From the sequence record NC_054932.1: a DNA stretch of 64,000 nt; one strand, given 5' to 3'. Shown piece by piece: positions 3,730 through 62,915 of this stretch (the stretch's first letter is position 1; each line of letters starts with the position of its first letter). Position numbers and translations under genes: made by a program. The notes under the pieces are model-generated. The model did not search any database, was not told where the DNA came from, and was given only the letters and a program-made list of their open reading frames with translations. The stretch is from Escherichia phage teqdroes.

Positions 3730-5787
3730 ATGGAACTTATTACAGAATTATTTGACGGCGCTTCGGCGCCGGTTGTTAACTTAAATCCTAAGCATAAAAT
3801 ACCTCAAATTTTTGCTATTCAAGCCGGCGAAGAAAGTGTGCTTCCTGGATTTAGATTTTGTACATACACCTCTGGCGGTGATACAAATAAAAACGTTAAG
3901 CCGGGCGATAAAATGATGCATATCGTAATGATAGGTGTCAACGAGAAATTATCGCTGGTTAAGCTTAGAAACTTGGGTGGAAATCCAATTGGCGTCATTA
4001 ATGCTGTTTTTGATACTGCTCTTCAAACAATGAAACAGTATAAAATCGACGCATGCCTATTCCGCGTACTAAAGAGTAAAACAAATGGCGCAGCTCGTCA
4101 AATGCAAGTTATTGCTGACCGTTTAGTACGTACTAAAGGAGCAGGTCGATATGTTCTCTTAAAGGAAATCTGGGACTATGATAAGAAATATGCATATATT
4201 ATGGTTTACCGTAAAAATGCCAATTTAGAAGACATTCCAGGTGTACCTCCTATTTCAACTGAGTTATTCACAAAAGTTGAATCAAAGGTTGGTGATGTTT
4301 ATGTAGACGTTAAAACAGGTAATGCTGTTCCTAAAGCTGTTGCTGTTGCTGCTTCTATTGCTTTAGAAAATGATAAGCGCACGGATCAAGCTGTTATTCA
4401 GAAAACTAAAATTAGTCGTCGATTAGCAGCACAAGCTCAATATTCTACTGTTGATGCTTCACTTCAGGGTGATAGCTTCGCCGCTAAGAAATATCAAGAG
4501 TTTGAATCTAAAGTTCCGGTATATAAAGCAGAAGGACCAATGAACTCCGGGGTTATCCAGATTGGTTCAAACTTCGGCAAAGGAGCTATCGGTGGTATGA
4601 GAAGTGCTTCTCGTTTTAAATCTAGTGATTATGAACTAGAAAGCTTCCGAAATCATATTGCATTAGCCCATGCACGTTTACGTGATCCATCTATCAAGTT
4701 GCAGAGCGATATAACATATCAAGGTTCTCAAGAATATTTAAAGAATAAAGAATTCTTTGATTATAAAACTGATAAAATTTTAAGCGATCTTGCTGACATT
4801 AATATTTCTAATAGCTTTGATGTTATTAAGAAAATTATTAATGATTTAGTTAAAGGTTCTAAAGCTACGCCAGATGAAAAGACAGCTATTATTCAATTTG
4901 TCATGAATGGCATTTATAAATTGATTAATGAATCTGCTGCCCAGGCATATGAATACGCAAGCACCGAAGTAACTCCAAAAGGATTAACCCAAGCTGAATC
5001 TGATGTAATTGAAGATTATTGTGCAGATTCATATGTTGAAATGAACTCGTTCCTTTTGGGTAAACCAGATTCTACCCGTGAAGAATATATGGAACGAGCT
5101 ATTAAGCACATCGAGACGTTGGATTCTGCCTTTGCCAAAGGATCAGTTCTTCCTCCAGGAACTACACTTTACCGTGGACAAGAAGTTACCTTTAAAACTT
5201 TGCGTCATAACATTGAAAACAAAATGTTCTATTTCAAGAACTTCGTATCGACATCACTTAAACCAAATATCTTCGGTGAGCATGGTAAAAACTATATGGC
5301 TCTAGATGATTCCGGCGCAGTATTTTCTGGCGAAGGAGAAGGTTCCGTTGATGCAGAAGATTTAATGCATATGGGTAGTCATTCTACATATGCCATTGAA
5401 GATGCTGAAACTAGCGTGGGTATGGTAATTAAAGGAGCTGAGCGAATCAAAGTTATCGTTCCAGGTCATTTATCAGGATTTCCATCAGAAGCTGAAGTTA
5501 TTCTACCGCGTGGAATTTTACTGAAGATTAATAAAGTAAGTACGTACTTTATGAAAGAAACTGCTTATAACAAGTATCTAATCGAAGGTACAATCGTTCC
5601 TCCTTCTGAACAATTAGAAGAATCAGTATATGATGGCGACCATTTAATGGAAACTGGTGAAGTTCGTCCAATGGCTGGATTTAATCAATTCCTTGTAGAA
5701 GAATCAAAAGAAGAGGAAAACGAAGTTTCTCAAATCTTGGCTTCTTTGGTTAACATCAACGGAATGTCTAAAAAGTTCAAGATGTAG
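3730..5787 (+). CDS. Alt-type mono-ADP-ribosyltransferase, copy 2 (paralog)
   Basis: 685-aa ORF 3 nt after copy 1; same N-terminal 240 aa and same ART motifs (YRGQ, NFVSTSL, EAEVILPRG), divergent centre. Confidence 0.75.
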   Translation: MELITELFDGASAPVVNLNPKHKIPQIFAIQAGEESVLPGFRFCTYTSGGDTNKNVKPGDKMMHIVMIGVNEKLSLVKLRNLGGNPIGVINAVFDTALQTMKQYKIDACLFRVLKSKTNGAARQMQVIADRLVRTKGAGRYVLLKEIWDYDKKYAYIMVYRKNANLEDIPGVPPISTELFTKVESKVGDVYVDVKTGNAVPKAVAVAASIALENDKRTDQAVIQKTKISRRLAAQAQYSTVDASLQGDSFAAKKYQEFESKVPVYKAEGPMNSGVIQIGSNFGKGAIGGMRSASRFKSSDYELESFRNHIALAHARLRDPSIKLQSDITYQGSQEYLKNKEFFDYKTDKILSDLADINISNSFDVIKKIINDLVKGSKATPDEKTAIIQFVMNGIYKLINESAAQAYEYASTEVTPKGLTQAESDVIEDYCADSYVEMNSFLLGKPDSTREEYMERAIKHIETLDSAFAKGSVLPPGTTLYRGQEVTFKTLRHNIENKMFYFKNFVSTSLKPNIFGEHGKNYMALDDSGAVFSGEGEGSVDAEDLMHMGSHSTYAIEDAETSVGMVIKGAERIKVIVPGHLSGFPSEAEVILPRGILLKINKVSTYFMKETAYNKYLIEGTIVPPSEQLEESVYDGDHLMETGEVRPMAGFNQFLVEESKEEENEVSQILASLVNINGMSKKFKM

Positions 5788-8234: not shown

Positions 8235-10007
8235 TTAATTAACTCCAGTCGCATCAAATACACCAGGAGCAGTCGTGCTCGTTACGGGTGTCATATTATG
8301 AACGACAGTATTTTTCTTAATAACATTATTAGTATTATTGATTGAAGGAGATGCTTGTTGAACAGGAGCTTGCTGTGCTTTGTTCTTTTCAATCACCTGG
8401 ACTTGTTTCGCTTCTGGTGATTTAGCAGAAGTTTCAGGTTTGGCATTAGGCTGATTTTTCTTGAGCTCTTGATAAGTAGCATCAATTTTAGAAAATCTAG
8501 CAGCAAGTTCTTTTTTAACTGCCGGTGAATTATTTAAATCCGGGTCATCCATCCGTTTTTTAAGGTCTTCATAGGCAGCTTCAACTGATTTAACCGTTGA
8601 GTCTTTACTCATATCAGCTGAATCAGCATATTTTTCAAAGCGAATCATTGCGGCACGGGCTTCATTAGCCTTCATTAAAGCATTTTTTCTTTCTTCAGGT
8701 GAAAGTTGCTTTAATTTTTCTTCTTCTGCCGCACGCTCTTCGTCGGTAGTTAGTGCTTCTTTATTATCAACCCCACGAATCCAATTAGATGCACGAGTTT
8801 TCCAATTAGCAATTTTATCTAATCCTTTTGCTATCGGACCAAGGTCTCCATTCATTCGTTTATCTTGATAATTTGCAACTTTTTCCTGGTCTTCTTTATT
8901 GAGAGATGCTCCAGTAGAATTTTGGAAATTTTCTAATGCTCTTCCTTCTACTTCATCAGCAGTATCCTTCATACCAGGAATGACTCGAAGAATTGCAGCA
9001 GATAATTTAGCCATACCTAATTGAATAAGTTCACCTAAATTAAAAAGAACACTTCCGAGTCCTTCAACAATAGCTGCTGTCAATCCACCCCAATCTCCCG
9101 CTTCCCAAAGTTGTTTAATTTTATCAATAGAATCAAAGATGCTCTGTAATAAAGGACCCCATGTTCCGGTTTCGCTAGAGAATTTAGTAAAGTCAGTATT
9201 AAATAAATCCCAGGCTTTTGAAAATTTATCTGACCAATATTTAAAATGAACCATCAGCAAGTCTATTCCAATAACAACAGCCAATATCATTGCAGTCATT
9301 TTAGCAGCTTCAATAGCAGCACTGATGGTGTACTTAAATAACATGCTTGATATTTTATCACTAATTGAAATGGATTTCTTAAATCCAAAATCAACTGTCT
9401 TTGTTAATTTATCTAAAGCTTGAGATAATTTTAAGTTAAATGCTTCTTTTTTCTGTTTTTCTTCTGGTGATTCTTGCTTTGGCTCAACTGGCTGAGGGGT
9501 AGGGAAAAAATCAGCGTCAGGATCATTATTAACTGCTTCGGGAGCCGGTAATAAAGGACCCACAGATTCAGCAGTATCATCCTCAACGACTTTAACAGGA
9601 ATAGCGCTTTCAACTGTAGCTAAACTAGTCCCAGTCTGTTGAATTCCAGCTGTCTGAATTTTTTGTTCTAATAAACTCGTTAATTTATCTAATTTGCTTC
9701 CGAGTGATTCACCGATTTCTTTATTAATATTGTTGCCAATTTCGACAGTTTCAGCAATTAACTCAGAACCGGCAGTAGTATCACTCACTGCGCTTTCTAC
9801 GTTACCAATTGCTCCAACTATTTCATTCGATTTTTCTTCGACAGTTTGAGCTATTAATTCAGAAGCAGCTTGAGTATCATCCAATTTCGTAGATATATCA
9901 TTAAGTCCAGATAAAGTGTTAGAAGCAGATTTAGCCGCTTCCTGTGTTGGTTTATTATCTGAAATAACTTTTCTACGCATCGTTTGCATTTCTTGTGGCT
10001 TTTTCAT
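8235..10007 (-). CDS. 29: baseplate hub subunit / tail length determinator
   Basis: 590-aa ORF; length and order match T4 gp29. Confidence 0.85.
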   Translation of the reverse strand: MKKPQEMQTMRRKVISDNKPTQEAAKSASNTLSGLNDISTKLDDTQAASELIAQTVEEKSNEIVGAIGNVESAVSDTTAGSELIAETVEIGNNINKEIGESLGSKLDKLTSLLEQKIQTAGIQQTGTSLATVESAIPVKVVEDDTAESVGPLLPAPEAVNNDPDADFFPTPQPVEPKQESPEEKQKKEAFNLKLSQALDKLTKTVDFGFKKSISISDKISSMLFKYTISAAIEAAKMTAMILAVVIGIDLLMVHFKYWSDKFSKAWDLFNTDFTKFSSETGTWGPLLQSIFDSIDKIKQLWEAGDWGGLTAAIVEGLGSVLFNLGELIQLGMAKLSAAILRVIPGMKDTADEVEGRALENFQNSTGASLNKEDQEKVANYQDKRMNGDLGPIAKGLDKIANWKTRASNWIRGVDNKEALTTDEERAAEEEKLKQLSPEERKNALMKANEARAAMIRFEKYADSADMSKDSTVKSVEAAYEDLKKRMDDPDLNNSPAVKKELAARFSKIDATYQELKKNQPNAKPETSAKSPEAKQVQVIEKNKAQQAPVQQASPSINNTNNVIKKNTVVHNMTPVTSTTAPGVFDATGVN

Positions 10008-10537
10008 TCAAATAATCCAATAATATTGCCAATTCCAGTTATTGGACCATTAGGGCCAGGAATTGCTAAAGTTGTAAAAATATCATTTGCCCATTTTAAA
10101 ACGAATGCTGGCATCTCAAGAAAATTAATTTCTTTAACTTCATCATTGACCTTAAGTAAGCATTTAGATAACATATCGCTCACCGTTAAAAATTGTTCAA
10201 ATTTTCCAGGAGGTCTAAAATAAAATGTATTTCCTTGGTATTGAAATTCCAATCTTTGGCATACATAGACATCATTAATGTCATAAGTATAGCCATCTAT
10301 TTCTTTACGAGATTTAATCTTTCCATTAAATTCCAATAAATGAATAGAAACGAAATCAACTTCTGCCGGTGATAAATTCGGACAAATAGAATCAATAAGA
10401 AGTTTTAAATTTTCATCAGGACCTTTAACATCCTTTAAAATGTTATAATGTTTAAGACCCATTTTAGGAATAGAAACTTCTTTATTGCTTATTGGAAGAA
10501 CTACTTTCTTCAGTGGTAGTATCAGATTTAAATTCAT
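10004..10537 (-). CDS. 28: baseplate hub distal subunit
   Basis: 177-aa ORF; length and order match T4 gp28; 5' end overlaps gene 27 so true start may be internal. Confidence 0.75.
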
Positions 10538-51626: not shown

Positions 51627-52351
51627 ATGAAACTAATCTTTTTAAGCGGTGTAAAGCGTAGTGGAAAAGATACTACTGCTGATTTTATCATGAGCAATTA
51701 TTCTGCAGTTAAATACCAACTTGCTGGTCCTATTAAGGATGCATTGGCTTATGCATGGGGAGTATTTGCAGCAAACACTGACTATCCTTGCTTAACTCGT
51801 AAAGAGTTTGAAGGAATTGACTATGATCGTGAGACTAATTTAAATCTGACTAAATTAGAAGTAATCACGATTATGGAACAAGCATTTTGCTATCTTAATG
51901 GTAAAAGCCCAATTAAAGGTGTGTTTGTTTTTGATGACGAAGGAAAAGAATCAGTTAATTTCGTAGCATTTAACAAAATTACTGACGTTATAAATAATAT
52001 TGAAGATCAATGGTCAGTCCGTCGTCTGATGCAAGCCCTAGGTACGGATTTGATTGTTAATAACTTCGACCGCATGTACTGGGTAAAATTATTTGCTTTA
52101 GATTATCTTGATAAATTTAACTCAGGTTATGATTATTATATCGTTCCTGATACCCGTCAAGATCATGAAATGGATGCGGCTAGGGCGATGGGTGCTACAG
52201 TAATTCATGTAGTTCGTCCTGGTCAAAAATCCAATGATACACATATTACAGAAGCTGGATTGCCAATTCGTGATGGCGATTTAGTAATTACAAACGATGG
52301 TTCTCTTGAAGAACTTTTTTCTAAAATTAAAAATACACTAAAGGTACTATA

Positions 52352-52352
<1 letters not shown>
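51627..52352 (+). CDS. 1: deoxynucleoside monophosphate kinase
   Basis: 241 aa from MKLIFLSGVKRSGKDT (P-loop). Confidence 0.85.
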
Positions 52353-53049
<697 letters not shown>

Positions 53050-53061
53050 TTTCACAAAGTT

Positions 53062-53091
53062 GTTTACATACTGATGAGGTAGTGATACTAT
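53062..53091 (+). promoter_or_regulatory. early promoter with stem-loop over -10 (PeSL-like) for ipI
   Basis: GTTTAC, 18 bp, TACTAT; -10 embedded in inverted repeat GATGAGGTA/TATCTCATC. Confidence 0.6.
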
Positions 53092-53121
53092 TATCTCATC
53101 AAAATTAATTAGGAAAATAAA

Positions 53122-53409
53122 ATGAAAACATTTAAAGAATTTACTTCTACAACTACCCCGGTTTCTACCATTACCGAAGCTACTCTTACTTCTGAAGTTA
53201 TTAAAGCAAATAAAGGACGAGAAGGTAAACCAATGATTAGTCTGGTTGATGGCGAAGAAATCAAAGGTACTGTTTACCTAGGTGATGGGTGGTCTGCTAA
53301 AAAGGATGGTGCTACAATCGTTATCTCTCCTGCCGAAGAAACTGCGTTGTTTAAAGCTAAACACATTTCTGCAGCACATCTCAAGATTATTGCTAAAAAT
53401 CTTTTGTAA
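53122..53409 (+). CDS. ipI: internal protein I (capsid-packaged anti-restriction protein)
   Basis: 95-aa ORF; N-terminal capsid-targeting sequence MKTFKEFTS with TITE/A protease site; early promoter upstream. Confidence 0.8.
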   Translation: MKTFKEFTSTTTPVSTITEATLTSEVIKANKGREGKPMISLVDGEEIKGTVYLGDGWSAKKDGATIVISPAEETALFKAKHISAAHLKIIAKNLL

Positions 53410-53428
53410 TAAACAATTTCACAAAGTT

Positions 53429-53458
53429 GTTTACACGGGGTTTTAGTAGTGATACTAT
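53429..53458 (+). promoter_or_regulatory. early promoter (PeSL-like) for 53495 ORF
   Basis: GTTTAC, 18 bp, TACTAT; conserved upstream TTTCACAAAGTTG. Confidence 0.6.
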
Positions 53459-53500
53459 TACCCTATCAAAACAAATGTGAAATTGGAGAATAAAATGAAA
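53447..53500 (+). repeat. 54-bp direct repeat, copy A (promoter -10 / RBS / ATGAAA cassette)
   Basis: Identical to 53747-53800. Confidence 0.8.
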
Positions 53501-53728
53501 ACGTATCAAGAATTTATTGCTGAAGCTGCTGATGTAAAAGTTGAGTTTATTTACATTGGTAAGAAAGATAAAATGGGCGAAATGCCTCATGGAGTTCTTC
53601 GTGATGCATTAGATAATTTCGGTCAACTCGGTGGTGAAGAGTTTGGTGATTATTTTGTTATCTATGGACCAGAAAAAGTCATCGAGAAATGGGCTGATAA
53701 ATATAAATCAATTTTTCGTAAAAAATAA
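53495..53728 (+). CDS. internal-protein-like small protein with CTS
   Basis: ATG at 53495 gives MKTYQEFIAEA N-terminus (ORF track begins at upstream GTG); early promoter cassette upstream. Confidence 0.55.
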   Translation: MKTYQEFIAEAADVKVEFIYIGKKDKMGEMPHGVLRDALDNFGQLGGEEFGDYFVIYGPEKVIEKWADKYKSIFRKK

Positions 53729-53758
53729 GTTTACTTTTAGATAGGGTAGTGATACTAT
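53729..53758 (+). promoter_or_regulatory. early promoter with stem-loop over -10 (PeSL-like) for 53795 ORF
   Basis: GTTTAC, 18 bp, TACTAT; inverted repeat ATAGGGTA/TACCCTAT flanks the -10. Confidence 0.6.
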
Positions 53759-53800
53759 TACCCTATCAAAACAAATGTGAAATTGGAGAATAAAATGAAA
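53747..53800 (+). repeat. 54-bp direct repeat, copy B
   Basis: Identical to 53447-53500, exactly 300 bp downstream. Confidence 0.8.
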
Positions 53801-53980
53801 CGTTGTGAATTAATTCGAAATGTTGCTATTGCAATTTCTGCTTCCGCTTTTAGTTTTTCAATGTTTGTTGGATTTATATGTGGATTATTGACTACAGCAG
53901 AAAATGTGTTTTCACTTGTAGTAGCATTTTTAATTGGTTTAATTGCTATTGTTATGGATAAAATTTCTAAAGGTGAATAA
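53795..53980 (+). CDS. small hydrophobic membrane protein
   Basis: ATG at 53795 behind duplicated promoter/RBS cassette; hydrophobic helices. Confidence 0.45.
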   Translation: MKRCELIRNVAIAISASAFSFSMFVGFICGLLTTAENVFSLVVAFLIGLIAIVMDKISKGE

Positions 53981-54391
53981 ATGAGTATTAACGAATATTA
54001 TGTTTATGCCGGGGATTATGCAAATCCTTCTCATTTTGAAGGTAATTTAATACCTGATAAAGTTTTTAATACTCCTTTTGAAGCGTGGAGTTGGATTGAA
54101 AGTAAAAATGGATTTTCTTACCGTTATGTTGAAGTAACTGATTGGAGAGGAACTAAATATCCTAAAGACCATTATTACGTAAATCCATCTAAGGTAAATT
54201 TTCTTTTATTCGCAGGTGATAATTATTATCCTTGTGGCGGATATGATGATTTAATTGCGTATGCTGAAACAGAAGATAAACTGCGTGATATCATTAAAGA
54301 AAATGAAAATAAACCAGATTATGGTTCCAATCGTTTCGACTGGTGGCAAATCGTAAATGCCCATACTCATGCTATCGTTGATAGAGGCTGA
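53981..54391 (+). CDS. hypothetical protein (136 aa)
   Basis: ORF ATGA-coupled to upstream gene. Confidence 0.5.
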   Translation: MSINEYYVYAGDYANPSHFEGNLIPDKVFNTPFEAWSWIESKNGFSYRYVEVTDWRGTKYPKDHYYVNPSKVNFLLFAGDNYYPCGGYDDLIAYAETEDKLRDIIKENENKPDYGSNRFDWWQIVNAHTHAIVDRG

Positions 54392-54393
54392 TA

Positions 54394-54681
54394 ATGATTC
54401 TTTATGCTAAAGTATCATCCATTGAAAATGGATATAAATATGATCAAGAAGCAGCTAAAGCCTTGATTGATGATTATGGCATTTTAACATGTTTTGAAGT
54501 TGAAAAGGTTTACATTGACCGTTCATCTTCTCAGGTTAAATTAGTGAAGGAAGACCGTAAATTTAATACAGTAAATTTTGATTTCTTTATTGAAACAGAA
54601 AAAGGTCCTCTTGAATATGATATTTTCAAGAATCCTTTGGGTCTTGAATGCATCGTAAATATGTATTATCATAAATGGTAA
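54394..54681 (+). CDS. hypothetical protein (95 aa)
   Basis: ORF 2 nt after previous stop. Confidence 0.5.
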   Translation: MILYAKVSSIENGYKYDQEAAKALIDDYGILTCFEVEKVYIDRSSSQVKLVKEDRKFNTVNFDFFIETEKGPLEYDIFKNPLGLECIVNMYYHKW

Positions 54682-54684
54682 ATA

Positions 54685-54709
54685 TGCTTTAAGAATTATT
54701 TGTTATTAT
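54685..54709 (+). promoter_or_regulatory. candidate middle promoter (MotA box TGCTTTA plus TATTAT) upstream of tRNA cluster
   Basis: MotA-box-like motif with correctly spaced -10, about 70 nt before tRNA-Gln. Confidence 0.4.
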
Positions 54710-54778
54710 TAACTCATACCGCACTGATTAATACCCTCTATCATCAAGGGTTCTTGCTAAAGAGCCTTTGTTAATAAT

Positions 54779-54851
54779 TGGGAATTAGCCAAGTTGGTAA
54801 GGCACTGGATTTTGATTCCAGGATGCAAAGGTTCGAGTCCTTTATTCCCAG
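54779..54851 (+). tRNA. tRNA-Gln (anticodon TTG)
   Basis: Cloverleaf by eye: acceptor TGGGAAT/ATTCCCA, T-loop TTCGAGT, anticodon loop TTTTGAT. Confidence 0.8.
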
Positions 54852-54852
54852 C

Positions 54853-54939
54853 GCGAGAATGGTCAAATTGGTAAAGGCACAGCACTTAAAATGCTGCGGA
54901 ATGATTTCCTTGTGGGTTCGAGTCCCACTTCTCGCACCA
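54853..54939 (+). tRNA. tRNA-Leu (anticodon TAA)
   Basis: Acceptor GCGAGAA/TTCTCGC, long variable arm, T-loop TTCGAGT, CCA encoded. Confidence 0.8.
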
Positions 54940-54944
54940 AATTT

Positions 54945-55018
<74 letters not shown>

Positions 55019-55022
55019 ATTT

Positions 55023-55673
55023 ATGACTCGTCGTGAGACGCTCAGTTCTTTATTAGGGACTGATATGCATTTTTATCTTTATAAAATAACAAATAAAATT
55101 AATAATAAAATTTATATTGGTGTGCATTCTACCGAAAATTTAGATGATGGATATATGGGTTCTGGTAAATTATTAAAAAGAGCCCAAGACAAGTATGGTA
55201 TAGAAAATTTCTCTAAAGAAATATTAGAGTATTTTGATGATAAAGAATCTATGCTTGAAGCCGAGAAAAATATTGTCACAGAAGAGTTTTTAAATAGACC
55301 AGATGTGTATAATTTAAAACTTGGCGGAGAAGGTGGATGGGACCATATAAATAATTATCCTATGACAGATCAGCAACGCGAATTAATTTCATTGGGTGTT
55401 AAAAAGGCACATTCTAACGGAAAATTAAAAGGATGGTCTTCAAATGGATTAATGAAGAATGGCTTTGCTGGTAAAAATCATTCTCAAGAAGCTAAACGTA
55501 AAATAGCAAAAGCAAACGAAGCAAAAGTTTCTGCGGATGAAAGAAAAAGAAGAATAGAAATTTCTAAATTATATGATTTTTCTAAGCGTGGTGAATTATC
55601 TAAATATGCTAAGCATATTGGCGTAAGTCATACTCAAGCAAAAAGAATTCTAAATCAAATTAACAATATATAA
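55023..55673 (+). CDS. segB: GIY-YIG homing endonuclease
   Basis: GIY..YIG motif (FYLYKITNKINNKIYIGVHS); inserted in tRNA cluster as T4 segB; start may be ATG 55065. Confidence 0.8.
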   Translation: MTRRETLSSLLGTDMHFYLYKITNKINNKIYIGVHSTENLDDGYMGSGKLLKRAQDKYGIENFSKEILEYFDDKESMLEAEKNIVTEEFLNRPDVYNLKLGGEGGWDHINNYPMTDQQRELISLGVKKAHSNGKLKGWSSNGLMKNGFAGKNHSQEAKRKIAKANEAKVSADERKRRIEISKLYDFSKRGELSKYAKHIGVSHTQAKRILNQINNI

Positions 55674-55680
55674 ATATTTG

Positions 55681-55770
55681 GAGGCGTGGCAGAGTGGTTT
55701 AATGCACCGGTCTTGAAAACCGGCAGTCGCTCCGGCGACTCATAGGTTCAAATCCTATCGCCTCCGCCAG
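55681..55770 (+). tRNA. tRNA-Ser (anticodon TGA)
   Basis: Acceptor GGAGGCG/CGCCTCC, long variable arm, T-loop TTCAAAT, CCA. Confidence 0.8.
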
Positions 55771-55776
55771 TTTTTG

Positions 55777-55852
55777 CTGATTTAGCTCAGTAGGTAGAGC
55801 ACCTCACTTGTAATGAGGACGTCGGCGGTTCGATTCCGTCAATCAGCACCAA
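55777..55852 (+). tRNA. tRNA-Thr (anticodon TGT)
   Basis: Acceptor GCTGATT/AATCAGC, anticodon loop CTTGTAA, T-loop TTCGATT, CCA. Confidence 0.8.
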
Positions 55853-55853
55853 G

Positions 55854-55928
55854 GCCCTGTAGCTGGAAGGTTCAAGCAAGCGACTCATAATCGCCAGATG
55901 GTGGTTCAATTCCACCCAGGGCCACCAA
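55854..55928 (+). tRNA. tRNA-Ile (anticodon CAT; Ile2-type, could be Met)
   Basis: Acceptor GGCCCTG/CAGGGCC, anticodon loop CTCATAA, T-loop TTCAATT, CCA. Confidence 0.7.
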
Positions 55929-55940
55929 ATTATGAATTAG

Positions 55941-56027
55941 GGGAGTTATCCCGTAGAGGTAGCGGTGTGGACTGTAAATTCATTGTCATTGCGACTCGGG
56001 TGGTTCGACTCCACCACTCCCCACCAA
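55941..56027 (+). tRNA. tRNA-Tyr (anticodon GTA), class II
   Basis: Acceptor GGGGAGT/ACTCCCC, loop CTGTAAA, long variable arm resembling E. coli tRNA-Tyr, T-loop TTCGACT; anticodon stem has two G-U pairs. Confidence 0.6.
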
Positions 56028-56031
56028 TTTG

Positions 56032-56106
56032 GATGTGTAGCTCAATGGTAGAGCGATCGCCTGTTAAGCGATTGGTTATAGGTTCGAATCCTATCACGTC
56101 CGCCAA
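56032..56106 (+). tRNA. tRNA-Asn (anticodon GTT)
   Basis: Acceptor GGATGTG/CACGTCC (one G-U), loop CTGTTAA, T-loop TTCGAAT, CCA. Confidence 0.7.
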
Positions 56107-56219
56107 ATTTGTGACAACTGTCACATTAATATCTACTTGACGCGATTATAGGGGTTGAACTGATCACTCTTCTCTTAATTTCGTGTGAAGACATCTTGAT
56201 TGTTGGAGTAGGTATTAAT

Positions 56220-56295
56220 GTGGCCGTAGTTCAGTTGGTAGAACTCGAGATTGTGATTCTCGTAGTCATGGGTTCGACTCCCATCGGTCACCCCA
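56220..56295 (+). tRNA. tRNA-His (anticodon GTG)
   Basis: Acceptor GTGGCCG/CGGTCAC, loop TTGTGAT, T-loop TTCGACT, CCA; no encoded G-1. Confidence 0.65.
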
Positions 56296-56299
56296 ATTA

Positions 56300-56375
56300 C
56301 GGGGCATAGCTCAGAAGGAAGAGCAAGGACCTTCTAAGTCCTAGGTCGTAGGTTCGATCCCTACTGCCTCGACCA
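56300..56375 (+). tRNA. tRNA-Arg (anticodon TCT)
   Basis: Acceptor CGGGGCA/TGCCTCG, loop CTTCTAA, T-loop TTCGATC, CCA. Confidence 0.75.
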
Positions 56376-56393
56376 ATTATAAGTGAGGAAAAT

Positions 56394-56744
56394 ATGAAAG
56401 GTAATGTTTATTTAGTAGTTCATGATTTAACATTTTACTTCAATGAATATGAAAAACATATCTCATTTCGTGAAATTAATTTACTTTATCAACACGCGGA
56501 TTATATTTATATTCAAAACGAATTTGGTCATTGGCAATTTCTCAAAAATCGTTCATTTGGCTTAGATGGTTACGAATACTTTGAACGTAAAGACCTTTTA
56601 GATAAAATTCCGTTATCTACGCAATATCAAAATCACAAATCTTTATATAAATGCCGTCCAATTCGAAATGTTGAATCCGCGTATGAAGCAATTGATTTAT
56701 GGCGTGAACGCCGTAAACAGATTGATGCTTTAAAAGAATATTAA
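56394..56744 (+). CDS. hypothetical protein (116 aa)
   Basis: ORF 18 nt after tRNA-Arg with GAGG RBS. Confidence 0.5.
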   Translation: MKGNVYLVVHDLTFYFNEYEKHISFREINLLYQHADYIYIQNEFGHWQFLKNRSFGLDGYEYFERKDLLDKIPLSTQYQNHKSLYKCRPIRNVESAYEAIDLWRERRKQIDALKEY

Positions 56745-56749
56745 GAAAC

Positions 56750-57081
56750 CGGGTCGCTACCGGTAAGTCGTCGGACTGATGTTCCCTGAGTAAGGAATTG
56801 CGTTAATAATCTTTGCGTTTATTGATGCCCTCTTACATCACAGCAGAAACGGCGCACCGAATTATCGATTCGAGGAAATATCTTTGCCGTAAGCCGAGTA
56901 GCGTTTTTGACGGAACGTTCGGATATGGTCGAGATATGGCCTTTTAAAAATATTGAGTAGCGTCAACTGCTTAATAACCGGGTTCGAATCCCGGCGTTTC
57001 GTACAAACACTTGCCTTAGCAGGTGGAACCCCGACAAGGTTGCCGCAAGGCTTAGCCCCGACCGAAAGGTTGGGGCTTTTT
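56750..57081 (+). ncRNA. putative stable structured RNA locus (tRNA-like T-arm; possible species 1/2-type RNAs)
   Basis: About 330 nt with no plus-strand ORF, higher GC, tRNA-like element CCGGG-TTCGAAT-CCCGG, ends in GNRA-hairpin terminator. Confidence 0.3.
57054..57081 (+). terminator. rho-independent terminator (GNRA hairpin plus T5)
   Basis: AGCCCCGACC-GAAA-GGTTGGGGCT then TTTTT. Confidence 0.65.
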
Positions 57082-57083
57082 GG

Positions 57084-57091
57084 TATAAATA
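57084..57091 (+). promoter_or_regulatory. late promoter TATAAATA for the 57128 CTS protein
   Basis: Exact motif 37 nt upstream of ATG, immediately after terminator. Confidence 0.5.
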
Positions 57092-57127
57092 AGTATATTA
57101 AAACCACGAATTAAAACAGGAAATAAG

Positions 57128-57601
57128 ATGAAATCATATGCTCAATTTTTAAATGAAGCGGTGTTAAATGAAGCATCTAGCACCGAAATTCAAGCTGTCG
57201 CAAAAGCAGCCATTGCCGCGGGTAAATATTCCTATAAAGATGCTTCCGATGAATCACGATTCCAATTTGCTCGTGATATGAAAGCCGAAGGATTTACAGG
57301 GAATGCAGTTAGTATGGCCTGGAAAAGTTTAGTTGCTACTGGCGCTGCTTTTGCAAAGGCTTCAGGTAAACCTGCTCCTAAAGCAGATCCTAAAGCTACA
57401 CAAGAAAAAAATATTGTTAAAGGAATTATCTCCAAATATGAAGCTATCCTTAAAGAGCTTTTAGTAATCAAAACTGAAGGTCAAAAGTTAGCTCGTGCTT
57501 ATAGTTTCAAAGATAACCCACATGCTCACTCTCTTGAGTATGTTGAAGACATCCAAAAAATTATTAAAGACCGCATTTGGTCTGCTAAACAAATCAAATA
57601 A
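57128..57601 (+). CDS. internal-protein-like protein with CTS (157 aa)
   Basis: N-terminus MKSYAQFLNEA resembles capsid-targeting sequence; TATAAATA late promoter upstream; terminator downstream. Confidence 0.55.
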   Translation: MKSYAQFLNEAVLNEASSTEIQAVAKAAIAAGKYSYKDASDESRFQFARDMKAEGFTGNAVSMAWKSLVATGAAFAKASGKPAPKADPKATQEKNIVKGIISKYEAILKELLVIKTEGQKLARAYSFKDNPHAHSLEYVEDIQKIIKDRIWSAKQIK

Positions 57602-57608
57602 CATTCTT

Positions 57609-57637
57609 AGTCCCAACCGAAAGGTTGGGACTTTTTG
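57609..57637 (+). terminator. rho-independent terminator, near-copy of 57054 module
   Basis: AGTCCCAACC-GAAA-GGTTGGGACT then TTTTT. Confidence 0.65.
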
Positions 57638-57769
57638 GTATCTAGGCCTTTCTGGGCCTCTCTAGGCATCATTTAGTTTCTACCCTTTATAATATATTAT
57701 CCTATCTTTTAATTGCCCCTCCTGACCCTAGAATTCCCTAAAACTTTTTAAAAATTTTTTCACAAAACT

Positions 57770-57799
57770 GTTTACATCCCTTTTCTTCCATGGTACTAT
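57770..57799 (+). promoter_or_regulatory. early promoter (GTTTAC, 18 bp, TACTAT)
   Basis: Conserved upstream TTTTCACAAAACTG element as at 53050 and 53416. Confidence 0.55.
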
Positions 57800-57842
57800 A
57801 CAACTATCAACTACTGATACAGAAAACAACTCGGAGAACGAA

Positions 57843-58106
57843 ATGGATAATTACGGCGAACTGTTCAACTTCTTTATGAAATGTGTTTCAGAAGATTTCG
57901 GTCGTACAGTGAATGATATTAAAGTTATCGGTCCTGATCATCCGATGTTTGAAACTTATGCGGTAATGGGCAATGAAGACGGTCAGTGGTATACTGTAAA
58001 GGTTGTGATTAACATGTTCACTGCTGAAAGTTATGTTAAACTGTCTTCTAAAGTTTACCATGATAACGACGAAATCGCAGAAGAATATTTCAATAATATG
58101 AAATAA
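57843..58106 (+). CDS. hypothetical protein (87 aa)
   Basis: ORF behind early promoter GTTTAC/TACTAT. Confidence 0.5.
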   Translation: MDNYGELFNFFMKCVSEDFGRTVNDIKVIGPDHPMFETYAVMGNEDGQWYTVKVVINMFTAESYVKLSSKVYHDNDEIAEEYFNNMK

Positions 58107-58107
58107 G

Positions 58108-58143
58108 TTTACATAGGCTCATGATTGAGATATTATGAGCCTA
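58108..58143 (+). promoter_or_regulatory. early promoter with stem-loop over -10 (PeSL-like)
   Basis: GTTTAC, 17 bp, TATTAT; perfect inverted repeat ATAGGCTCAT/ATGAGCCTAT around -10. Confidence 0.6.
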
Positions 58144-58162
58144 TACAAATGAGGAAAACATT

Positions 58163-58498
58163 ATGAAACGTAACTTTAGTAAAGCTTTTTGTAATAGAAA
58201 TAATTATCCTGAAGAGCTTTTTGAATCTAAGGACTTTAAAGAGTTTAACGAACGTTCTCAAAACATGCCTGTACAATGGGTGTTAGATTATGCCAAACGT
58301 ATCTTTGAAGGCGTGCGGGATATTTGTCCTGATGATGAAGCTCCTTATTTTAAAAAGGCTTGGGAACTCGCCAACCAAGCATATATCAATGCTTTAGAAT
58401 CTTCTAAAGGTACTGACGATGATTTTATTTTATTAGCTATCAATGATGCCGTTATTGAGGCCATCAACGTCTTTATCGACGAGCTAGACGAAGAATAA
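58163..58498 (+). CDS. hypothetical acidic protein (111 aa)
   Basis: ORF behind early promoter with stem-loop over the -10. Confidence 0.5.
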   Translation: MKRNFSKAFCNRNNYPEELFESKDFKEFNERSQNMPVQWVLDYAKRIFEGVRDICPDDEAPYFKKAWELANQAYINALESSKGTDDDFILLAINDAVIEAINVFIDELDEE

Positions 58499-58527
58499 GT
58501 TTACAATCTATTAAAACGTGATATTAT
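58499..58527 (+). promoter_or_regulatory. early promoter (GTTTAC, 17 bp, TATTAT)
   Basis: Extended -10 GTGATATTAT. Confidence 0.55.
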
Positions 58528-58554
58528 CTAATTATACCAACCTAAGGAAATACT

Positions 58555-59148
58555 ATGAACACACTGAAGAAAATTGTTGAGTTTATTCGCACTAAACTTG
58601 GTTCTGCTATGGCTAAAAATCTATCTGTTGAAGAACAGTATACTGCTGCAGCAGCAAAACTACTTGATAAGATTAAAGATCTAAAAACTGCTTCTGTTAA
58701 ATCTATTAATGAAGAAAAGCGTATTCGTGAACTTATTGTCGAAAAGAATAAGCAGGCCGAATCAAAAGAGCGTGAAATTCGCAAGCTTCTTTCGGAAGGT
58801 CAAGATGTAACAATGCATGCTAAACTTGGTTTACTATATCGTCGAACAGCTGAGCAGTTGACTACTAAAGCTGATGGTTATGCTGAAATGCGAATTGAAA
58901 TCGCCAAGAAAGTAGTTGAGTTAGATGATGCTCGCCAAGAACTTGCAGTTAAATTGGAATATATCCGTGAAACTCGCGCCGCGAATGCCCTCGGAATTAG
59001 TACTGCCGATGATGTAGTTGAAATTGCAGCACTGACTAAGGTTGATATTGAAGATACTCTTGCTCGAGTTGAAACCTTTAATGGTAATATTTCTGGGGTT
59101 GAAACTACCTCTGCCGATGTTCAGGAATATATTAATTCTCTGAAATAA
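58555..59148 (+). CDS. hypothetical coiled-coil protein (197 aa)
   Basis: ORF behind early promoter; long heptad-like helices; UUCG hairpin downstream. Confidence 0.5.
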
Positions 59149-59154
59149 TGATAA

Positions 59155-59168
59155 GGGGCTTCGGCCCC
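59155..59168 (+). terminator. UUCG-tetraloop hairpin after coiled-coil ORF
   Basis: GGGGC-TTCG-GCCCC; no clear U-run, so possibly RNA stability/processing element. Confidence 0.35.
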
Positions 59169-59189
59169 TATTACTTGGAGTAAATAGGA

Positions 59190-59798
59190 ATGAAAATGCA
59201 AAGTGATTTCAATTCAATGTTTGAAGAATTCCAAAGACAAGTTGATGTTCCAGACCAATTATTAAATGCTCTTAAACGTATGGCAGAAGGACGTAATTAT
59301 TATTGGGGTTCTTCATATGAAACTGATGAAAGTCTTTCTGGAAGATTTTCTAGAGGTAAAAAGTCTTTAATACGTCCTGGAATACTTATTAACAGTATTG
59401 AATCAATTCATTCATTGACATGTGATTTTGATGTTGAATTTACTGATTTCATTTCTCCTGAATGGTCAGTTTGTTATTTAAACGACGATTTTGATTATCT
59501 CGGTGTTTATAGTTTAAGTGATGCATGGTTTAAACGTAATTTACAAAAGTCAAATTTATTTTATATTGATACTACTGTAAAATTTCGGGGCAAGAAATAT
59601 TTCTTTACTCTTATAGTTGATTCTGAAACTAAGCATGAAAATAAGCGTATTCTTAGTAAAAAGAATATCTTAACTATTGTTGATGATCTTTTTGATAAAT
59701 TCGTGGAAAATCCTAGTTTTGAAAGCGATTTATTACTAGAAAAATTTGTTAAGGAATGTAGAGAATATGTCAAAGCCATCAATGTATCTTCCAAGTAA
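59190..59798 (+). CDS. hypothetical protein (202 aa), C-terminal FVKECREY tail
   Basis: ORF with GGAG RBS; 3' end overlaps next gene start. Confidence 0.5.
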   Translation: MKMQSDFNSMFEEFQRQVDVPDQLLNALKRMAEGRNYYWGSSYETDESLSGRFSRGKKSLIRPGILINSIESIHSLTCDFDVEFTDFISPEWSVCYLNDDFDYLGVYSLSDAWFKRNLQKSNLFYIDTTVKFRGKKYFFTLIVDSETKHENKRILSKKNILTIVDDLFDKFVENPSFESDLLLEKFVKECREYVKAINVSSK

Positions 59799-61960: not shown

Positions 61961-61990
61961 GTTTACTTTCTCCTAGAATTGTGATAGTAT
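61961..61990 (+). promoter_or_regulatory. early promoter for denV
   Basis: GTTTAC, 18 bp, TAGTAT with GTGA extension. Confidence 0.5.
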
Positions 61991-62441: not shown

Positions 62442-62915
62442 ATGAAAACATATCAAGAATTTATCACTGAAGCAGCTATTAATTCTCAAATTATTGCTGA
62501 ATCTTTTACTGATCTTTTGAAATTTAAAAAAGGTCAAAAAATCACTGCTGTATTGGATGATGGTACAGAAGTTGAGATGGATGTACAGGGATATAATTAT
62601 GCAGTAGATGGAAAACTGTATAATAAATCTCATGCTAAATTTGATTCATTTGACGACTTTGTTAATACAGTTGAAGATGAAAAAACTCGTAGATCCATTG
62701 CAACTGGTGATGCTAAGGTTCTTATGGCACATGGTCATGAACGCATTCGCGCTAAACAGAATAAAATGGGTGAAGATAATTTTGCATTAGTTGGTTATCA
62801 ATCTGGTAAACAAACTTATGGCTATCAACGTACTGCTACCATGTATAACAAAAATGGTAAAATTGCCTTTGTGAATAGTAAAGGTTCTATTCAGTACGTT
62901 AAATCGTTCAAATAA
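62442..62915 (+). CDS. internal-protein-like protein with CTS (157 aa)
   Basis: N-terminus MKTYQEFITEA, a near-consensus capsid-targeting sequence. Confidence 0.55.
   Translation: MKTYQEFITEAAINSQIIAESFTDLLKFKKGQKITAVLDDGTEVEMDVQGYNYAVDGKLYNKSHAKFDSFDDFVNTVEDEKTRRSIATGDAKVLMAHGHERIRAKQNKMGEDNFALVGYQSGKQTYGYQRTATMYNKNGKIAFVNSKGSIQYVKSFK

Follow-up and report, generated by a model that had tools for sequence, protein, structure and literature searches.

Early-promoter and inverted-repeat cassettes at the internal-protein locus of a T4-like coliphage, with an exact 55-nt repeat on both sides of ip6

Genes of the internal-protein locus

The window, that is, the whole 64,000-nt stretch of DNA that was analysed, belongs to a Tequatrovirus, a T4-like coliphage, and its nearest records are Tequatrovirus genomes; about 1,100 records matched the locus. 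Its genes run in the order gp1-57A-57B-ipI-ip6-trna.4-trna.3-trna.2-tRNAs, in agreement with annotated relatives. The interval from 57B to trna.4 occupies the place of the polymorphic internal-protein (IP) locus, with the order 57B-ipI-ip6-trna.4 as in the annotation of T4, RB18 and RB15. This region is very probably the hypervariable IP locus of T4-like coliphages, shuffled via promoter cassettes. An Rfam search of positions 52300-59300 detected tRNAs and nothing else.

All features described here lie on the plus strand. The gene ipI (53122-53409; named so in T4) encodes internal protein I, with 95 aa beginning MKTFKEF and a propeptide end at TE/ATLTSE (the slash marks this end here and below), and was assigned to phrog_4363, 'internal virion protein' (E 1.8e-48). 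It is followed by ip6 (53495-53728; 77 aa, MKTYQEFIAE/A; phrog_8111, 'internal virion protein', E 1.8e-50), which is annotated in relatives as 'Ip6 similar to T6 Ip6' and is a variable gene, present in 244 of the 736 records that hold trna.4. The conserved gene trna.4 (53795-53980; 61 aa; phrog_1692) encodes a predicted membrane protein without a capsid-targeting sequence. To the second IP locus belongs an internal-protein gene at 62442-62915 (157 aa, MKTYQEFITE/A; phrog_3155, 'internal virion protein', E 6e-102), which lies immediately 3′ of denV. A further ORF with a similar N-terminus (57128-57601; 157 aa, MKSYAQFLNE/A) is flanked on both sides by 36-nt terminator hairpin repeats. Neither of these two ORFs has a promoter cassette of its own. 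The PHROG family names of the ip ORFs are annotation only, and head packaging and gp21 processing of their products are therefore predictions here. For the neighbouring gene 57B, one relative has the annotation Acb1, an anti-CBASS protein.

The N-terminus MKTYQEF occurs at 53495 and 62442, with the variants MKTFKEF at 53122 and MKSYAQF at 57128. Internal proteins of T4 carry a capsid-targeting sequence (CTS) that, in the reviewed account of Mullaney & Black 1996, serves prohead targeting and gp21 cleavage (PMC9026906, PMC3012670); residues 4 and 7 (Y/F and F) are assigned to targeting and residues 8 and 10 (I and E) to gp21 processing (PMC9026906). A propeptide of about 10 residues, aromatic residues at 4 and 7, and an (I/L)-x-E motif were all found at 53495 and 62442, where MKTYQEFIAE/A and MKTYQEFITE/A match the 10-residue CTS of T4 IPI, IPII and IPIII while the mature parts are unrelated. 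The ORF at 53122 has a longer, IPI-type propeptide, and that at 57128 a divergent MKSYAQFLNE. Judged from these residues, the shared N-terminus appears to be the CTS of internal proteins, kept by function.

The preliminary description of this DNA had explained the shared MKTYQEF by the promoter-early stem-loop architecture. The CTS is a protein signal, which accounts for the N-terminus being kept and not for its spread. The 55-nt repeat described below holds only the ATGAAA (Met-Lys) of the MKTYQEF codons, trna.4 lacks this N-terminus, and of the window's four ORFs with it, those at 57128 and 62442 have no promoter cassette. What survives of the explanation is that CTS codons do move together with cassettes in relatives, as in KMB23 ip6, phiD1 ipI and a 73-nt repeat of VR7.

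Promoter cassettes and their inverted repeats

Each gene of the IP locus comes with a portable expression cassette of its own, about 70-90 bp long and composed in order of an AT-rich upstream block, a T4 early promoter, an inverted repeat, a short leader with the RBS, and ATGAAA, to which CTS codons are added in the IP genes. The promoters, at 53062, 53429 and 53729, have the T4 early form GTTTAC-N17-TACTAT with an extended -10 (TG at -15/-14), and the fPS-65 annotation lists the equivalent sites as predicted early promoters. The T4 RefSeq record holds no promoter features and thus gives no experimental anchor; the three promoters are predicted to be active from the consensus and from homology to T4.

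Cassette P1 (class alpha; 53044-53121), 5′ of ipI, has its -35 GTTTAC at 53062-53067 and its extended -10 GTGATACTAT at 53082-53091, followed by a leader with an AGGA RBS. Its upstream block AAATAATTTCACAAAGTT overlaps the 57B stop codon, and in 15 relatives this cassette stands before ipI or ip5. Cassette P2 (class beta; 53411-53494), 5′ of ip6, has the upstream block and -35 of P1 (GTTTAC at 53429-53434), the same -10 at 53449-53458, the left segment ACGGGGTTTTAGTA, the right arm TACCCTATCA and a leader, L1, of sequence AAAACAAATGTGAAATTGGAGAATAAA. P2 is not, as one reading had it, a 'broken' chimera derived from P1 and P3, but forms a class of its own that still folds, and its 5′ half stands directly before trna.4 in T4, HY01 and RB68. 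In cassette P3 (class gamma; 53711-53794), 5′ of trna.4, the -35 GTTTAC (53729-53734) abuts the ip6 stop codon, and the -10 (53749-53758) is again followed by leader L1. The gamma 5′ half follows ip6 in all ip6-bearing Tequatrovirus relatives examined.

A conserved upstream block had been proposed for three consecutive promoters. Among P1-P3 the block AATTTCACAAAGTTGTTTACA is common to P1 and P2 only, so the proposal holds for these two; P3, whose upstream side consists of the 3′ end of ip6, for that reason has only the hexamer GTTTAC in common with them. The block recurs a third time (TTTTTTCACAAAACTGTTTACAT, 57748-57777), with an early promoter 5′ of e.8 (57748-57799), where there is no inverted repeat. 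An early promoter combined with an inverted repeat recurs 5′ of e.7 (58107-58162), with GTTTAC at 58107-58112, arms at 58113-58125 and 58132-58144, and the -10 TATTAT at 58131-58136.

The -10 was described earlier as lying inside an inverted repeat at three sites, and this was confirmed at each of them. In P1 (53072-53101) the arms TGATGAGGTA and TATCTCATCA enclose GTGATACTAT, so that the -10 forms the loop; in P3 (53740-53767) the arms GATAGGGTA and TACCCTATC likewise enclose GTGATACTAT; and the e.7 repeat (58113-58144) consists of ATAGGCTCATGAT, TGAGAT and ATTATGAGCCTAT. The arms around the -10 of P1 and P3 measure 9-10 bp, and the arms fall between -35 and +3. The coordinates originally given for these repeats correctly placed them at the promoters and covered -35 to -10, but the true right arms run about 10 nt further. 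Predicted RNA folds of P1, P3 and e.7 had energies of -14.8, -16.4 and -18.4 kcal/mol (z -4.3 to -6.4), and 0 of 200 shuffled sequences were as stable. P2 folds as well (-14.6 kcal/mol, z -3.8), with a shifted and interrupted stem. RNA folding of the neighbouring early promoters at 57770 and 58499 gave no comparable structure.

The stem classes alpha, gamma and delta differ in sequence but pair in one and the same register, with both sides altered at 7 of 10 pairs. In the stem alignment 84.5% of cells were paired, compared with 31-63% when the partner was slid, and the covariation score was 0.348 against 0.19 for shuffles, none of 500 of which reached 0.348; these values come from 3-5 independent stem classes. 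A fifth class is present in VR7.

Two readings of the hairpins were set aside. As intrinsic terminators they lack a T-run and received no call in a terminator scan; one depositor annotated an e.7-type hairpin as 'terminator' in phage e11/2. Hairpins that mask the RBS occur in the T4 genes e, soc and I-TevI, and such masking was rejected here, where the Shine-Dalgarno sequence (SD) lies 17-26 nt 3′ of the right arm. Most likely the hairpin forms in read-through RNA from the upstream gene, in which it may act as an attenuator or 3′ stabiliser. Transcripts initiated at the cassette promoter would lack the hairpin that the read-through RNA has.

Positions 53446-53500 and 53746-53800 are identical over 55 nt and allow no extension at either end. 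A duplicated cassette with an offset of 300 bp had thus been recognised correctly in the preliminary description, where it was given as 54 nt, one base short at the 5′ end. Each copy contains the extended -10 GTGATACTAT, the right arm of the hairpin, leader L1, the GGAG RBS (53485-53488 and 53785-53788) and ATGAAA (53495 and 53795), and leads into a different coding body (ip6, 77 aa, and trna.4, 61 aa), also as had been described. No other exact direct repeat in the 64-kb window is as long, the next being 28 and 25 nt. The first copy is found at the same place, 100% identical, in 303Ecol101PP, SCS4 and teqskov, and the 75 nt of 53746-53820, which include the second copy, are 100% identical to the end of the RB15 record Z35082. 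The perfect 55-nt repeat itself was absent from all 50,697 phage records compared.

Exchange of genes and cassette parts among relatives

When we compared 20 relatives, the number, order and identity of the ip ORFs varied in at least six configurations. T4 and HY01 have only ipI, RB68 only ip5 and RB18 only ip6; ipI is combined with ip6 in the window, KAW1E185, 303Ecol and SCS4, and ip5 with ip6 in fPS-65, HP3.1, ZCEC15, fFiEco06, KMB23 and teqskov, while RB15 carries ip5-ip9-ip7-ip8. Across the 20 relatives ipI, ip5 and ip6 were gained, lost or exchanged as units, and the boundaries lay within cassettes. Breaks in collinear homology with the window occur at 53103-53156, 53409-53411, 53469, 53495, 53762-53763 and 53785, and 12 of the 15 distinct breakpoints fall inside the three cassettes, which account for 27% of the interval 52600-53975. 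Compared with T4, ip6 is an indel that has the repeated sequence GTGATACTATTACCCTATC at its boundaries. The gene e.7, behind the cassette at 58108, is likewise replaced or bounded there: KAW1E185 has the whole of 58107-58538 replaced, and in other relatives homology breaks at about 58145-58167.

These comparisons bear on the earlier suggestion of gene shuffling by promoter-early stem-loops (PeSLs), which would have been contradicted by the same ORFs occurring in relatives without cassette-delimited boundaries. The boundaries were found in the cassettes, and the cassettes do delimit modular exchange; the part of the suggestion that does not apply is the classic PeSL layout, since the stem here overlaps the -10 and lacks a T-run. 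Mosaic switches free of cassettes were also detected, for trna.3 alleles at 53976-53981 and 54191-54224, and an additional ORF lies 3′ of trna.2 in KAW1E185, again at a place that has no promoter cassette. Some of the clustering at gene ends is therefore what selection for intact genes would produce by itself.

The cassettes are themselves composite. Six phages have leader L1 before ip6, and RB15, phiD1, ESh33 and Phaginator have it before trna.4; leader L2 stands before trna.4 in most phages and before ip9 in RB15. The ip7 cassette of RB15 joins a gamma left arm to an alpha right arm. First codons have been exchanged as well, KMB23 ip6 having the ip5 type and phiD1 ipI the YQ type, and 57B and ip5 have their last codons and the upstream block in common (31-33 nt exact). 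VR7 contains a comparable exact cassette duplication of 73 nt. The 5′ half, the stem arms, the leader and the first codons thus recombine independently.

Repoila, Tetart, Bouet and Krisch (EMBO J, 1994) are said to have described T-even IP loci with early-promoter/inverted-repeat elements, in which a conserved element of about 70 bp reportedly flanks small ORFs that share a conserved leader of about 11 aa and are polymorphic in number, order and identity. In the summaries of that work in PMC2839356 and PMC4122927, the IP locus carries PeSL-like early-promoter/stem-loop elements for which shuffling was proposed. To the extent of these summaries, the window agrees with the 1994 locus in its position between 57B and trna.4, in a conserved element of about 70 bp whose T4 early promoter is overlapped by an inverted repeat, in cassettes on both sides of the leader-bearing ORFs ipI (MKTFKEF) and ip6 (MKTYQEFIAEA), and in the polymorphism of the ip genes, and it differs only in the allele combination, ipI plus ip6 with L1 before both ip6 and trna.4. 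The RB15 sequence Z35082 that matches the window over 75 nt comes from the same 1994 study.

Classic PeSLs, described for RB49/phi1, PST/T4 and nt-1/KVP40 (PMC2839356, PMC4122927), carry their stem-loop immediately 5′ of the promoter; it is frequently rich in G/C, and its activity as a transcription terminator has been demonstrated (Arbiol 2010, PMC2839356; Comeau 2014, PMC4122927). The window cassettes resemble them in being AT-rich regions with an early promoter that fits the PST/T4 consensus TTTACW-N17-TAYWAT (PMC2839356, PMC4122927) and with an SD and start codon at the 3′ end. Further likenesses are their place in a hyperplastic region at indel and replacement boundaries (the 12 of 15 breakpoints and the replaced e.7 region) and the chimeric cassettes that arise from crossovers in or near the loop. 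They differ in the stem-loop, which overlaps the -10, is AT-rich, has no T-run and received no call in the terminator scan. Neighbouring PeSLs recombine to give mini-circles or deletions, and the chimeric cassettes and the short patch described below offer indirect support that the window cassettes may do the same. The window cassettes are, as far as the summaries of the 1994 work describe it, the older 'PeSL-like' element attributed to Repoila and not classic PeSLs. Petrov 2010 mentions neither IP loci nor PeSLs.

Both the architecture and the shuffling model are thus already known from the 1994 work and the PeSL papers of 2010 and 2014, and because of the 1994 description the feature is a clean example and not a discovery. 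What the window adds is a clean natural example at nucleotide resolution, in which a 17-nt patch, probably from conversion, sits in an otherwise identical background and gives rise to a 55-bp direct repeat around ip6. It leaves the existing knowledge of the IP-locus system unchanged, and elevated loss or circle formation of ip6 is a simple prediction from it.

Internal proteins enter the host together with the phage DNA, and IPI*, at least, disarms a host restriction system. Because of these properties, and with 57B annotated as Acb1, the IP locus may be viewed as a small counter-defence arsenal, which the cassettes would provide a means of re-equipping.

Origin of the 55-nt identity and recombination at the cassettes

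The long identity of the two copies depends on a 17-nt patch, AAAACAAATGTGAAATT, at 53768-53784, which replaces the usual trna.4 leader (T/A)ACTACTGA. This patch is the sole difference between the window and 303Ecol101PP over 1.6 kb (52600-54237), and KAW1E185 differs from the window across 2 kb only at 53460, in the patch at 53768-53784 and at 54597. A donor sequence for the patch lies 300 bp upstream in the same genome. On this sequence evidence, the 55-nt identity appears to be a recent short-patch replacement and not an old conserved cassette. A single recent event, most simply ectopic gene conversion, would have created it by copying the 17-nt ip6 leader of P2 over the 9-nt trna.4 leader of P3, with GTAGTGATACTATTACCCTATC and GGAGAATAAAATGAAA as flanking homologies.

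A possible but less likely origin of the patch is a co-infecting RB15- or phiD1-like phage that already had L1 before trna.4. In-register homologous recombination would then have placed one crossover within the 22-nt core GTAGTGATACTATTACCCTATC and a second a short way 3′ of it, which would still be cassette-mediated shuffling, here between genomes. The distribution of the L1-trna.4 junction was resolved by a 53-nt BLAST query at E<=1e-14, queries of 161 nt and 81 nt being ambiguous because two-piece matches tie with one-piece matches. The junction was found in five records, so that L1 before trna.4 is not unique to this phage (it is also in RB15, phiD1, ESh33 and Phaginator), and the complete identity of RB15 Z35082 over 53746-53820 also agrees with a donor of this kind. 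Exact-pattern scans of IMG/VR for the junction and for the 55-mer gave 0 hits, which shows only that IMG/VR lacks close relatives. Since the window equals 303Ecol101PP up to 54237 and KAW1E185 up to 54596, a tract from another phage would be under about 35-55 nt. Against such an origin, phiD1 and ESh33 do not match the window at 53803, 53845, 53881 and further sites, and an identical donor was already available 300 bp away in the same genome.

Given how closely the cassettes resemble each other and how readily T4 recombination uses short homologies, the cassettes would act as crossover points, between which ip genes would be inserted, deleted and exchanged, and their sub-modules would themselves be reassorted. 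It is improbable that the inverted repeat is instead a dedicated recombination signal whose cruciform or hairpin form is cut or bound by a phage enzyme (endonuclease VII, for instance, or a recombinase), which would make the IP locus an integron-like array of promoter-carrying cassettes that does not depend on passive homology. The conservation of structure over sequence, with compensatory changes in at least four stem classes as in attC sites, and the chimeric cassettes that join within the loop are in line with such a signal, and a stem-loop-binding recombination protein was raised as a possibility by Arbiol et al. (PMC2839356). However, the locus has no associated recombinase, crossovers are also seen outside the hairpin (in the upstream block, leader and CTS codons), hairpin-free early promoters and cassette-free breakpoints exist, and T4 general recombination suffices at such homology lengths. 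If the repeat were a structure-specific site, T-even IP loci would constitute a rapid exchange system for injected anti-defence proteins. The likeness to integron attC arrays is a functional analogy, comprising small exchangeable adaptive or anti-defence genes and inverted repeats whose structure is kept more than their sequence. The window has neither an integrase nor attI and each cassette has its own promoter, so that it is not a member of that family, and general homologous recombination is the simplest account.

An assembly or consensus artefact, in which P2 reads were misplaced at P3 and the true leader at 53768 is TACTACTGA instead of AAAACAAATGTGAAATT, is very improbable. Two near-identical cassettes separated by 300 bp fit into the insert of a short-read library, and the whole P3 configuration is in no other record (best collinear match 93.2%; 0 IMG/VR hits), but each half of the junction is known independently from records of the Sanger era and from modern ones, the patch boundaries are clean and lie at shared homologies, and the 73-nt exact duplication in VR7 is similar. 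Just as implausible is identity through selection on promoter and RBS function, by convergence or purifying selection: the -35, extended -10, GGAG and ATGAAA are functional elements kept in all cassettes, but the 17 nt that make the identity long are leader positions that vary freely (L1, L2 and L3 before the same genes), and the closest relatives have a leader of other sequence and length there in an otherwise identical background.

As a result of the replacement, ip6 now lies between perfect 55-bp direct repeats, in place of the 22-nt repeat of phages of the 303Ecol101PP or KAW1E185 type. Loss of ip6, or its excision as a 300-bp circle, is therefore predicted to occur at a raised frequency.

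The ipI–ip6–trna.4 locus and its duplicated cassette

The window is a Tequatrovirus sequence, and its top database match was phage vB_EcoM_KAW1E185 (98.8%). On the + strand, the genes run in the order gp1 dNMP kinase, 57A, 57B, ipI (53122-53409), ip6 (53495-53728; 77 aa, "Ip6" according to several depositors), trna.4 (53795-53980), trna.3, trna.2, and the tRNA cluster, with early-promoter cassettes, here called P1, P2, and P3, before ipI, ip6, and trna.4, respectively. The ORFs starting at 53122, 53495, and 62442 belong to three distinct "internal virion protein" families in PHROG profiles. The trna.4 body was found in 736 phage records versus only 244 for the ip6 body, and ip6 is therefore the variable gene beside a conserved trna.4; in T4, trna.4 directly follows ipI. 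Directly 5′ of the internal protein (IP) cassettes lies 57B (52594-53049), which is annotated as "anti-CBASS protein Acb1" in ZCEC15 and as "cyclic phosphodiesterase" in 303Ecol101PP; under the Acb1 label, 57B together with IPI would make the locus a counter-defence gene cluster. A 216-aa ORF (55023-55673) that separates tRNA-Gly from tRNA-Ser in the tRNA cluster is annotated in relatives as a homing endonuclease (segB or segB-like). The tRNA set differs from that of T4, with Met, Tyr, Asn, and His present in the window and in KAW1E185, and Pro and Ile absent.

The exact duplication of promoter, ribosome-binding site, and start that the preliminary description had reported is real and one base longer than claimed: positions 53446-53500 and 53746-53800 are identical over 55 nt, and extension is impossible on both sides. 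This pair is the longest exact direct repeat of the 64-kb window, and chance is no concern because the next-longest exact repeats measure only 28 and 25 nt. Each copy runs from an extended −10 (GTGATACTAT) through TACCCTATC and a 26-nt leader with GGAG to ATGAAA, and the ORFs that follow, ip6 and trna.4, are mutually unrelated. The 28- and 25-nt repeats, spaced 2097 nt apart, are due to two tandem Alt-like ORFs (1630-3726 and 3730-5787; 698 and 685 aa) directly 3′ of the DNA ligase gene, both of which begin M(M)ELITELFD and differ in their middle parts.

Stem classes, breakpoints and reassortment

Inverted repeats were found at all three sites where they had been described (53072-53101, 53740-53767, and 58113-58144), each with the −10 in its loop. 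Their RNA folds reached −14.8, −16.4, and −18.4 kcal/mol, respectively, with z-scores of −4.3 to −6.4 and 0 of 200 shuffles equally stable, and DNA folds of the same repeats gave z-scores of −2.2 to −4.6. The same folding test detected no structure at the nearby early-promoter-like sites 57770 and 58499. An upstream block said to be common to three promoters (AATTTCACAAAGTTGTTTACA) is present at P1 and P2, and also at site 57748, but is missing at P3 because the last part of the ip6 ORF occupies the 5′ side of P3. At the denV early promoter (61962-61990), which precedes the second IP locus, a small inverted repeat spans the −10 (AATTGTGA|TAGTATAT|TCACAGTT, with 7 of 8 positions paired).

We surveyed every GTTTAC-N17-TAnnnT site with a downstream ORF in 20 related loci. 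The cassettes fell into classes that have the −35, spacing, and −10 in common and whose arms are unlike. Class alpha (TGATGAGGTA / TACCTCATCA) precedes ipI or ip5, class gamma (AGATAGGGTA / TACCCTATCT) always follows ip6, class delta (TGATAGAACT / AGTTCTATCA) precedes trna.4 in phiD1, ESh33, Phaginator, and RB69, and class beta (GGGTTTTAG..., with a shifted stem) precedes ip6, or trna.4 in T4, HY01, and RB68; a fifth stem (GATGGGATAA/TTATCCCATC) was found in VR7, a phage of another genus. When 20 distinct cassettes were aligned without gaps, with 10 in-register pairs, 84.5% of stem positions paired in register versus 31-63% with the partner slid, and changes on both sides occurred at 7 of the 10 pairs. 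The covariation score was 0.348 versus 0.19 for shuffles (matched by 0 of 500), which is suggestive of selection acting on stem structure and falls short of proof because the independent stem classes are few.

In relatives, most gene boundaries fell in cassettes, and the refuting condition set beforehand, the same ORFs lacking cassette-delimited boundaries, did not hold. Breakpoints were read from BLAST matches of the window to each of 19 relatives, chained collinearly over 52600-53975, an interval of which the three cassettes, counted from the upstream block through codon 11, make up 27%. Twelve of 15 distinct homology breakpoints fell inside them, and part of this clustering at gene ends would also be expected from selection for intact genes. 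The ipI/ip5 swap extends from 53142-53156, in the first codons, to 53411, where the P2 upstream block starts, and breakpoints in phiD1-type phages lie at 53411 and 53763. RB18 lacks ipI through a 367-nt deletion from the P1 repeat to the P2 repeat, while in T4, HY01, and RB68, which lack ip6, the gap runs from 53469 to 53785, flanked by the repeated GTGATACTATTACCCTATC at one end and by GGAGAATAAAATGAAA at the opposite end. The e.7 cassette, at ~58107, behaved alike: in KAW1E185 the entire 58107-58538 segment (cassette, e.7, and next promoter) is swapped for another cassette and a 59-aa ORF, and other phages break at ~58145, 58152, 58157, and 58165-58167. This 59-aa ORF (9805-10076 of the extracted KAW1E185 locus) is unrelated to e.7 and has its own promoters, with small palindromes over the −10 (AACACC..GGTGTT; GAGTATAATACTC). 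Cassette-free mosaic boundaries also exist, at the trna.3 allele switch (53976-53981 and 54191-54224) and at about 54650-54700, where an extra ORF lies between trna.2 and tRNA-Gln, and the cassettes are therefore frequent but not sole crossover points. Many relatives carry another allele of trna.3 over its 5′ two-thirds; the extra ~516-nt ORF (RB32ORF135c-like) is present in KAW1E185, RB18, ZCEC15, teqskov, and phiD1 and absent from the window.

Reassortment also involves parts of cassettes. Leader allele L1 (AAAACAAATGTGAAATTGGAG) precedes ip6 in the window, KAW1E185, 303Ecol101PP, SCS4, RB18, and teqskov, and trna.4 in RB15, phiD1, ESh33, and Phaginator; L2 (ACTACTGAGGAG) precedes trna.4 in most phages and ip9 in RB15, and L3 precedes ip6 in fPS-65-type phages. 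The ip7 cassette of RB15 (Z35082; 683-760 of its extracted locus) combines a gamma-type left arm with an alpha-type right arm and leader, and the joint, within the loop, breaks the stem. First codons are exchanged as well: in KMB23 ip6, the initial seven codons are those of ip5 (ATGAAAACTTTCAAAGAGTTT; 1788-1810 of the KMB23 locus), while phiD1 ipI starts with MKTYQEF instead of MKTFKEF, and RB68 ip5 with MKTYKEF. Genes 57B and ip5 have identical last codons (DLK*; DDLK* in 57B) followed by the same upstream block, exact over 31-33 nt. The final codons and stop codon of 57B are part of the recombining block, in common with the ip5 end. In VR7 (Gaprivervirus), a 73-nt exact repeat (2115-2187 and 2448-2520 of its locus, 333 nt apart) comprises hairpin, −10, leader, GGAG, ATG, and eight codons of the capsid-targeting sequence (CTS) before two different ip genes. 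The window is therefore not alone in having a long perfect duplication of a cassette; the VR7 repeat shows the phenomenon in a second genus, and there the repeat includes the CTS.

Of earlier accounts, that of Repoila et al. 1994 is the closest and deals with exactly the same locus; Comeau et al. (PMC4122927) again put forward the idea that such elements shuffle the IP palette. The reading as cassette-driven gene shuffling of T4-type phages was largely right, with breakpoints and reassortment in agreement; the system was already known and has been correctly recognised here, and the window is a tidy natural example of it. The strict promoter-early stem-loop (PeSL) has its stem-loop, a terminator, 5′ of the promoter, a feature that the window cassettes lack. 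They do agree with it in composition (AT-rich region, early promoter, and SD plus start codon at the 3′ end) and in lying at insertion, deletion, or replacement boundaries.

Origin of the 55-nt identity

Over 52600-54237, the sole difference between the window and 303Ecol101PP lies at 53768-53784; over 52600-54650, KAW1E185 differs only at this patch, at 54597, and at 53460, the last being a private KAW1E185 change. In both phages and 11 further relatives, (T/A)ACTACTGA precedes trna.4. The window has 17 nt (AAAACAAATGTGAAATT) in place of 9 nt, and the same 17 nt stand before ip6, 300 bp upstream. P2 and P3 beforehand had 22 nt to the left and 16 nt to the right of the patch in common. Judged from these alignments, the pattern is the probable signature of short-patch ectopic conversion between neighbouring cassettes. 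What is new here is the allele only, a fresh conversion patch by which the direct repeat flanking ip6 grew from 22 bp to 55 bp. The complete P3 configuration was found in none of 50,697 records (best collinear match, 93.2%), and the five records with an L1–trna.4 junction all lack ip6.

A less likely but plausible source of the patch is an RB15- or phiD1-like phage in which L1 already preceded trna.4, through a double crossover over a very short tract: RB15 matches perfectly over 53746-53820, where its record ends, but phiD1 and ESh33 diverge from the window shortly downstream. A testable expectation from the 55-bp repeat is that ip6 is lost more often, or that 300-bp circles arise.

Proposed working of the cassettes and the shared N-terminus

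Beside the established anatomy, cassette-bounded polymorphism, sub-module reassortment, stem covariation, and isolated patch, a working of the cassettes can be proposed. The sites probably act as early promoters, because they match the T4/PST consensus TTTACW-N17-TAYWAT (as given in PMC4122927) and the fPS-65 record carries its depositors' predicted early promoters at equivalent sites. T4 general recombination, whose homology need is <50 bp as cited in PMC2839356, would exploit the 20-70-bp cassette homologies. The hairpin would arise in read-through RNA just past the upstream stop codon, where it would probably attenuate transcription or stabilise the 3′ end; transcripts begun ~7 nt past the −10 would hold only part of the right arm. 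A canonical intrinsic terminator was rejected, as the hairpin has no T-run. The e.7 hairpin is annotated as a "terminator" in phage e11/2. A DNA-level role of the inverted repeat, for example a cruciform as a recombination or regulatory site, is conceivable; a structure-specific, integron-like recombination role is improbable.

MKTYQEFIAE is the CTS of T4 internal proteins. According to PMC9026906, the first 10 residues of IPIII are enough for packaging, with residues 4 and 7 acting in targeting and residues 8 and 10 in gp21 cleavage. Four window ORFs (53122, 53495, 57128, and 62442) have a CTS-type start on bodies that are mutually unrelated by BLASTP. The suggestion that the cassette explains the shared MKTYQEF held in part: it is a plausible acquisition route, given first-codon exchange in relatives, but the 55-nt repeat itself supplies only Met-Lys. 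Because cassette and CTS dissociate (a promoter cassette is lacking at 57128 and 62442 and present without a CTS at trna.4), function explains retention of the N-terminus, and cassette recombination could plausibly bring a CTS to new ORFs.

The 157-aa ORF at 57128-57601 starts with MKSYAQFLNE|A, a divergent CTS-like leader that includes an L-x-E cleavage motif. The ORF matches phrog_2280 ("unknown function") and occurs in 510 phage records, being "hypothetical" in all those sampled. Two 36-nt terminator hairpins that are 92% identical (57051-57086 and 57606-57641) flank it, and TATAAATA, the T4 late-promoter motif, lies at 57084-57091. The ORF may encode a packaged protein that has gone unrecognised, in a cassette bounded by terminators.
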